From Escherichia coli (lineage in GTDB: Bacteria > Pseudomonadota > Gammaproteobacteria > Enterobacterales > Enterobacteriaceae), in NCBI RefSeq assembly GCF_030013595.1, contig NZ_CP122768.1: a DNA stretch of 64,000 bases; one strand, 5' to 3'. A model generated the notes under the pieces. That model made no database searches, had not been told where the DNA came from, and was given only the letters and a program-made list of their open reading frames with translations. The position numbers and the translations under genes were made by a program. Positions 51,971 through 52,830 of the stretch are shown here, piece by piece; position 1 is the stretch's first letter, and each line of letters begins with the position of its first letter.

Positions 51971-52830
51971 TTATGCTGCTAATAATCTATCCAGTGACTG
52001 CTGAGCAATAACCAAATGCTGACCGCCAAATAACCTTGCACGATTTAACAGCGTGTAGAGTTGGTAAACCGGTTGACGTTCAAGGAAATCGGCAGGTAGC
52101 GGGGATACTGACTGATAGCCGTCATAGATTTGTGGCGGCTGTTCAGTATGCAGCGGTAACATCGCCAGGTCGCACTCTCGGTCACCCCAGTAGCAGGCCG
52201 GGTCGAAAATGTACGGGCCATCCGGACCCAGCGCACAGTTGCCGGACCATAAATCGCCGTGCAACAGAGAAGGCTGCGGTTGATGCGAGGCCAGACGCTG
52301 CTGAATATGCTCGACGATGGCATCGATATTGCCGAAAGCGATCCCTTTTTCTGCCGCCAGTTCCAGCTGCCAGCCAATCCGTTGTTCAGCAAAAAAGTTG
52401 ACCAGCGACGTTGCCAGGTGTTGGGCTGGGGAGTTGTGGAGAGCGCGTTATCGAAATCGAGGCCAAATTGCGGTTGGTCGCTCCATTGATGTAAACGCGC
52501 AATTTGCTGACCAAGAATAAATGCGCTATGCGCATCCAGCGGGCGAGGTGGGAGATAGTCCATCACCAGAAAACTGTAGTCACGGTCAGCGCCAACTGCC
52601 CAAACCTTAGGCACGGTGACGGTTTTACTACGCGACAGTAACTCCAGTTGGTCGGCTTCGGCGGTAAAACCGGGAAGCAGTTCCCTTTCATCACATTTGA
52701 CGAAAAAGTCACGTCCTGCATAGCGCAAATGCCATGCGGCATGGACTTCTCCGCCAGGCAGTTCATTACGCAGTTCGATTTCGCCTTCACCTAACTGCTC
52801 GCTCAAAAGACGACTGATTGCCTGCCACAT
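51971..52830 (-). pseudogene. yniA: fructosamine/ketosamine kinase family gene split by a 1-bp homopolymer frameshift
   Basis: N-terminal frame (from 52830) leaves the conserved sequence after ...RRWSTF at an A6 run (52390-52395, T6 on the coding strand); the -1 frame continues FAEQRIGWQLELAAEKG...HGDLWSGN to the stop at 51971; a seventh T would restore one reading frame. Confidence 0.75.

Follow-up and report, generated by a model that had tools for sequence, protein, structure and literature searches.

A split yniA gene in an Escherichia coli assembly most likely reflects an under-called homopolymer

According to the part of the work of Gemayel et al. (2007, FEBS J 274:4360) that is relayed in PMC5270733, the bacterial homologues of fructosamine-3-kinase (FN3K) are ribulosamine/erythrulosamine 3-kinases. 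For yniA, the E. coli gene of this family, our literature search returned incidental mentions only. Homopolymer slippage is the commonest real route to frameshifts, and homopolymers of the length found in this gene are, in nanopore-type sequencing, called from signal duration, with a tendency to be reported one base short. In published benchmarking, it was in the lengths of homopolymers and at Dcm motifs that errors of the nanopore consensus concentrated (Wick et al. 2019, PMC6591954). A set of porcine ETEC/STEC genomes from Belgium (Vereecke et al. 2023) was obtained from R9.4.1 data with Bonito 0.4.0 and Trycycler and was polished with medaka only; no short-read polishing is described for these genomes, among which strains 4077 and 4079 are named (PMC10151945). 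Here, we describe a frame break in yniA within a stretch of 64,000 nucleotides of E. coli DNA (contig NZ_CP122768.1 of assembly GCF_030013595.1), referred to below as the window, and compare the break with the corresponding positions of public assemblies.

Anatomy of the break in yniA

In the window, yniA is found in its usual E. coli neighbourhood, consisting of pfkB, ydiZ (ghoS in the PGAP annotation), yniA, yniB, and hxpB. Translation of the minus strand from the ATG at 52830 gives MWQ...NTWQRRWSTF, that is 146 native residues, after which the frame continues to a stop at 52045 (Table 1). The adjacent frame, read from 52396 down to 51971, gives FFAEQRIGWQ...LDRLLAA followed by a stop, which is the native C-terminal half. 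The preliminary description had proposed that the frame is broken after RRWSTF by the loss of one base at a 6-base run, that the sequence is native on both sides of the break, and that one additional base would give a continuous ORF of roughly 286 aa. All of this was borne out, and the protein restored by one base is exactly the 286-aa YniA. The run itself had been placed at 52390-52395, which is off by one, position 52390 being a C.

Among 5,423 complete genomes with yniA, the best matches listed all have a gene of 861 nt, against 860 nt in the window, and no full-length exact match to the window gene was found among these 5,423 genomes. The lacking base belongs to codon Thr145, ACT in the lineage of the window, and is its third position. 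With the gap disregarded, the window gene and the intact allele found in many genomes have the same sequence, and no secondary decay was detected in it, the gap being the sole difference from the intact allele. The earliest start codon in the downstream frame is a TTG at 52264, from which a product of only 97 aa would be obtained. The gene adjoining yniA at 52936-53226 carries the PGAP name 'type V toxin-antitoxin endoribonuclease antitoxin GhoS' and is named ydiZ (putative endoribonuclease) in MG1655; no ghoT-like partner was evident beside it.

The truncated product matches Pfam family PF03881 (E = 1e-49) through residues 1-153, covering model positions 1-154 of 288, and the intact relatives carry both PF03881 and PF01636. 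When the intact 286-aa relative was compared with structures of the FN3K family, matches were obtained to 3JR1 (E = 4e-71) and to 6OID (E = 7e-36), the latter being the Arabidopsis protein-ribulosamine 3-kinase, as well as to 3F7W, 9CX8, and human FN3K. The segment LLHGDLWSGN of intact YniA aligns identically to 6OID. The HGDLWSGN loop corresponds to residues 191-198 (window 52238-52261), and both this loop and D210 lie downstream of the break. Membership of the family is supported by the PF03881 profile match and by structural homology together with the HGDxWxxN loop and the downstream Asp, and these last two elements are out of frame in the window. If the deletion is real, the yniA allele is null, and the strain would have lost, as an ordinary private change, a repair kinase that is dispensable.

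Table 1. Features of the yniA region and of other sites discussed in the text, in window coordinates
Feature	Position	Strand	Remarks
yniA (fructosamine/ketosamine-3-kinase family)	51971-52830	-	860 nt; 861 nt elsewhere
6-base run at the frame break	52391-52396	-	A6 on the plus strand, T6 on the coding strand
Present ORF	52045-52830	-	261 aa: 146 native residues (to F146) and 115 out-of-frame residues
Native C-terminal half, out of frame with the start codon	51971-52390	-	HGDLWSGN loop and FDPA (D210)
Second window-private T7 to T6 contraction	33710-33715	+	astE-spy intergenic; T7 in relatives
Complete IS10-type element	46038-47366		1,329 bp; between cedA and ydjO; ISVsa5-family transposase in other records
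Private SNP	59896	+	A in the window, G in all relatives; synonymous in thrS

Run length at Thr145 among complete genomes

Alignment across strains showed that the region of the run reads ACG TTT TTT GCT in MG1655, AR_0077, and others, that is a G followed by six Ts, and ACT TTT TTT GCT in the relatives of the window, that is seven Ts arising through a synonymous change at Thr145. This synonymous polymorphism, ACG or ACT at window position 52397, sets the homopolymer at six or seven bases. The ACG allele was found in 3,919 of 5,426 complete genomes with an allele-specific probe, and the T7 allele in at least 530 with an 80-nt query. Six of the 5,426 genomes (~0.1%) carry the frameshift allele, and more than 99.8% of complete genomes have one continuous yniA ORF. 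All frameshift carriers with intact relatives examined (the window, ETEC1748, Nord8, and L005-type contigs) have a T7 background. The preliminary description had advised a comparison of run length with MG1655; such a comparison is uninformative and would mislead, because MG1655 also has six Ts.

The frameshift allele occurs sporadically among the complete genomes, and no lineage was found in which it is fixed. In the ST69-like background, the 45 complete genomes listed, which are identical to L005 except for one gap, all have an intact yniA. Exact copies of the 261-aa product occur in 417 index blocks of public assemblies.

The deletion places the heptamer T_TTT_TTG over ACT-TTT-TTG, which fits the X_XXY_YYZ pattern in the zero frame, and a -1 slip at this site restores STFFAEQ. 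The frameshift allele also recurs in several backgrounds. Both observations would fit a site of programmed -1 ribosomal frameshifting, of transcriptional slippage, or of a phase-variable on/off switch for yniA, a reading to which we nevertheless assign an extremely low probability. A programmed slip is opposed by the continuous ORF encoded in nearly all complete genomes, and a two-ORF architecture conserved across strains, as envisaged in the preliminary description, is contradicted by its occurrence in only six complete genomes and by its discordance between clonal siblings. The downstream 90 nt of RNA fold with -23.2 kcal/mol (z = -0.42), and 63 of 200 shuffled sequences fold as well or better. 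No Shine-Dalgarno-like (GGAGG-like) element was seen by eye in the 25 nt upstream of the heptamer. Contingency tracts usually have at least eight bases, and a tract of six to seven bases is thus shorter than those typical of phase variation. The off allele of a phase-variable locus would here be confined to ~0.1% of complete genomes, and the discordance between siblings with zero SNPs, accompanied by other homopolymer contractions, points to error and not to switching.

A further proposal is that the change from ACG to ACT has made yniA slippage-prone in about a tenth or more of E. coli, and that many of the recurrent T6 alleles are genuine independent nulls, for which -1 slippage of the ribosome, or slippage in transcription, could provide a partial rescue by restoring the wild-type protein. 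We consider this very improbable; if true, a protein-deglycation kinase would be under the control of a reversible, low-grade on/off switch.

Near-clonal relatives and changes private to the window

An exact clone of the window was found neither in the complete-genome collection, where the best match reached 99.9%, nor among the long contigs with the 261-aa product. HCP5S3_I2, the nearest complete genome, has T7 in yniA and is separated from the window by ~30 SNPs over 64 kb. In order to identify draft relatives, the H10N variant of YniD found in the window was used as lineage marker, and a ydjO lookup added more. Over 18.6 kb, 2-3 SNPs separate the window from L011 (with 20 similar places) and from L012, which carry T7 and a 286-aa YniA, and L023 (with 18 similar places) differs by a single SNP in 10.9 kb and likewise has T7. 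L025 also reads T7 where the window reads T6. In total, more than 40 near-clonal assemblies, with 0-3 SNPs per 10-20 kb, are intact at yniA. The deletion is private to the assembly of the window. It does not behave as an inherited pseudogene, the near-clonal drafts all being intact and the window copy being free of secondary decay.

Against the annotation of the nearest complete genome, yniA alone differed in length among ~58 genes of the window, in agreement with the preliminary description, where the remaining genes checked were found to be full length. Both gdhA and chbR are intact in the window and broken in HCP5S3_I2. This genome has frameshifts in gdhA (T5 to T4) and in chbR, and an IS200 beside osmE (L003 19175-20517; L004 10152-10993 and 7171-7629). 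The broken gdhA of HCP5S3_I2 is surprising and may be an assembly error. No other run was discordant with HCP5S3_I2 among the window's 24 runs of at least seven bases or its 80 runs of at least six, and 24 of the 26 ancestral runs of at least seven bases in the window are concordant with the relatives. The preliminary description took the intact genes as an argument against widespread homopolymer error. This argument fails, because errors in intergenic DNA are not seen by a check of genes, which thus cannot exclude an artefact, and the window has a second private contraction from T7 to T6 that is intergenic and was invisible to such a check.

This second contraction lies between astE and spy (Table 1). 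The run is T7 in GCA_053634315.1 (L020), which carries the rarer AstA R86 marker as the window does, in GCA_020301305.1 (L026, with 17 similar places), and in HCP5S3_I2. A T6 run is fixed at this site in a separate lineage that is 2.1% divergent from the window, in which 96 complete genomes match exactly, and the run accordingly varies naturally between lineages besides being error-prone. An ordinary polymorphism, as these 96 genomes might suggest for the T6 of the window, was rejected, the clonal relatives being T7. An import of T6 together with the SNP at 33546 by recombination from the fixed-T6 lineage was also rejected, this lineage being 2.1% divergent, having C at 33546, and differing at 33762. 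The run is ~150 bp upstream of spy and could touch the spy regulatory region.

Over the 62.7 kb covered by clean relatives, the differences private to the window amount to two T7 to T6 contractions, three SNPs, and one IS10. In typical E. coli divergence, SNPs outnumber small indels several-fold, and a ratio of two indels to three SNPs is therefore too high for ordinary evolution. Of the three SNPs, that at 59896 falls in a CCTGG Dcm motif of the relatives, which reads CCTAGG in the window. Dcm motifs (CCWGG) occupy 1.2% of window positions, and the chance of at least one hit in three SNPs is ~0.04; there is a weak indication that methylation may have caused an error in the consensus here, in which case the SNP is not real. 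The other two SNPs, at 15265 (C in the window, T in relatives) and at 33546 (G in the window, C in relatives), are not associated with a methylation motif. With astE ending at 33538, the SNP at 33546 follows its stop codon by 8 bp, and the private contraction is only 163 bp away from this SNP.

The IS10 element is flanked by a perfect 9-bp target duplication, GGTTAAGTT, at 46029-46037 and 47367-47375, and is a real structural change of the strain from which the window was obtained. It is absent from L011, L012, L023, L026, and HCP5S3_I2. By coordinate arithmetic, the contig of the closest relative, the short-read-like GCA_053634315.1, ends at the IS10 junction, and the insertion may be common to a small subclade. 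The resolution of IS10 inside unique sequence, at a point where the closest short-read-like relative ends, fits a long-read source for the window. From the error pattern and the resolved 1.3-kb IS10, we infer that the source technology was long-read. Elsewhere in the window, espL1 (type III effector family, 632 aa; 55628-57526) is intact, as it is in the relatives; K-12 has the pseudogene arpB at the corresponding locus, and split or degraded copies of espL1 were seen in Nord8, L009, and L013.

The window sequence as given carries the deletion, and slippage is plausible at the T7 allele. Replication slippage could have deleted one T in the isolate itself, giving a genuine and very recent null allele of yniA. 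From the sequence, the product would be predicted to lack the H191-G-D193...N198 loop and D210 and to have lost ribulosamine/ketosamine-kinase (protein deglycation) activity, and a rare -1 ribosomal slip on T_TTT_TTG, or an extra U added by RNA polymerase, would leave a trace of wild-type STFFAEQ protein. We regard a genuine mutation as unlikely, albeit with several observations in its favour. The carriers with examined relatives all derive from the T7 background and none from the commoner allele with ACG and T6; the window is correct at its other 24 long runs and has no second broken gene; IS10 and SNPs are further real changes private to the isolate; and yniA appears dispensable enough for a null allele to be credible. 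Against it stand the restriction of the deletion to one assembly among the many intact near-clonal ones, the atypical proportion of indels to SNPs relative to what is generally expected of real divergence, and the finding that the allele is fixed in no lineage examined. The deletion is moreover paired with the astE-spy contraction, at a site that also fails in nanopore-only assemblies.

The same runs in nanopore-only assemblies and comparison with known systems

The six complete genomes with the frameshift comprise five Belgian porcine ETEC and Nord8. ETEC1748 (5,096,790 bp) has T6 in yniA and its near-identical sibling ETEC4067 (5,096,799 bp) has T7; ETEC6333 and ETEC6334, which are 5 bp apart in genome size, are likewise discordant at this run. 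Over 46 kb, ETEC1748 and ETEC4067 show no SNPs and exactly two indels, one in the yniA run and one in the astE-spy run, each a contraction from seven to six bases in ETEC1748. With random contractions, the chance that two among the ~19 shared runs of at least seven bases coincide with the two of the window is ~1/171. Nord8 and SK1144 are separated by no SNPs and by two indels in 11.6 kb, both again contractions from seven to six, and the other listed relatives of Nord8 are also two gaps apart from it. Both frameshift genomes that were compared with siblings (ETEC1748 and Nord8) thus have extra contractions from seven to six bases and no SNPs. Where yniA is annotated as a pseudogene in the complete RefSeq genomes examined, the annotation is probably an artefact.

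ETEC1748 also has a +1 frameshift in hxpB (L002/L016 24187-24856). This frameshift is common to the Belgian nanopore-only ETEC and to independent porcine genomes of serotype O139:H1, including W13-16, K_EC180, EC556, and others, and hxpB is apparently a genuine pseudogene that has become fixed in the porcine O139:H1 lineage. A poor ETEC1748 assembly as the cause of the frameshift was ruled out by its presence in these independent genomes.

Both contractions of the window were also found in GCA_030347985.1, a 918-kb contig from the broader lineage of the window that lacks the IS10. Within 30 kb, this contig has additional errors consisting of T6 to T5, A7 to A6, two T8 to T7, and one 1-base insertion, and osmE, yniA, and yniD are not called in it. 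The frameshift-carrying Logan contigs L006-L008 have further homopolymer deletions (A7 to A6, T7 to T6, G5 to G4, and C4 to C3). Two clean frameshift contigs, L005 and L010, carry T6 as their sole indel in 12.8 and 8.3 kb, and some T6 calls such as these may be genuine. Together with the 417 index blocks that hold the 261-aa product, these two contigs lend support to a genuine mutation.

We consider it very probable that the break in yniA is a homopolymer under-call in a long-read (nanopore-type) assembly and not a biological change. The evidence consists of a contraction private to one assembly, a second error of the same class in the window, and miscalls at the same sites in documented nanopore-only assemblies. 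In the proposed course of events, the synonymous change from ACG to ACT at Thr145 in the lineage of the strain would have lengthened the run from T6 to T7, and the consensus would then read T6 for T7, so that the frame shifts after F146 and the gene looks split; the real genome would encode a normal 286-aa kinase. Counting against an artefact are the window being far cleaner than the worst comparators, the concordance of its other long runs (24 of 26), and the intact state of the other genes. Of the three causes offered by the preliminary description, a sequencing error is the one favoured here, genuine mutation is retained as a minority reading, and a programmed slip is not upheld, the allele being present in six of 5,426 genomes and discordant between siblings. 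A lone homopolymer frameshift in a clean-looking window can still be an assembly artefact. The informative test is comparison with clonal short-read assemblies and with sibling pairs of nanopore-only genomes, and from such comparison of clonal assemblies and nanopore siblings it emerges that the same two T7 runs fail repeatedly.

As regards YniA/FN3K homologues, restoration of the frame yields the 286-aa protein that is standard for E. coli YniA (WP_000267670.1 in relatives), whereas the catalytic half is out of frame in the window allele. With dnaX-type programmed -1 frameshifting in E. coli, the locus shares the formal slippery heptamer T_TTT_TTG, but it differs in having neither a stimulatory hairpin, nor an upstream Shine-Dalgarno-like element, nor a conserved architecture, and its heptamer exists only in the rare deletion allele. 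The strain-private slippage pseudogenes of E. coli resemble it in the loss of a single T, a null product, and a gene that is otherwise undecayed; the break in the window differs in being inherited by no clonal relative and in being paired with a contraction at an error-prone site. A contrast is provided by the lineage-fixed hxpB frameshift of porcine O139:H1 strains, which is common to independent laboratories. With nanopore R9.4.1 errors, the window shares a 1-base contraction of a 7-base run, a second one nearby, and, as a weaker resemblance, one private substitution in CCTGG, and with the nanopore-only ETEC1748, as judged against its 0-SNP sibling ETEC4067, it shares the identical two miscalled runs. 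It differs from these nanopore comparators in an error density of two per 64 kb, at the low end, and in a source technology that is inferred from the assembly itself.
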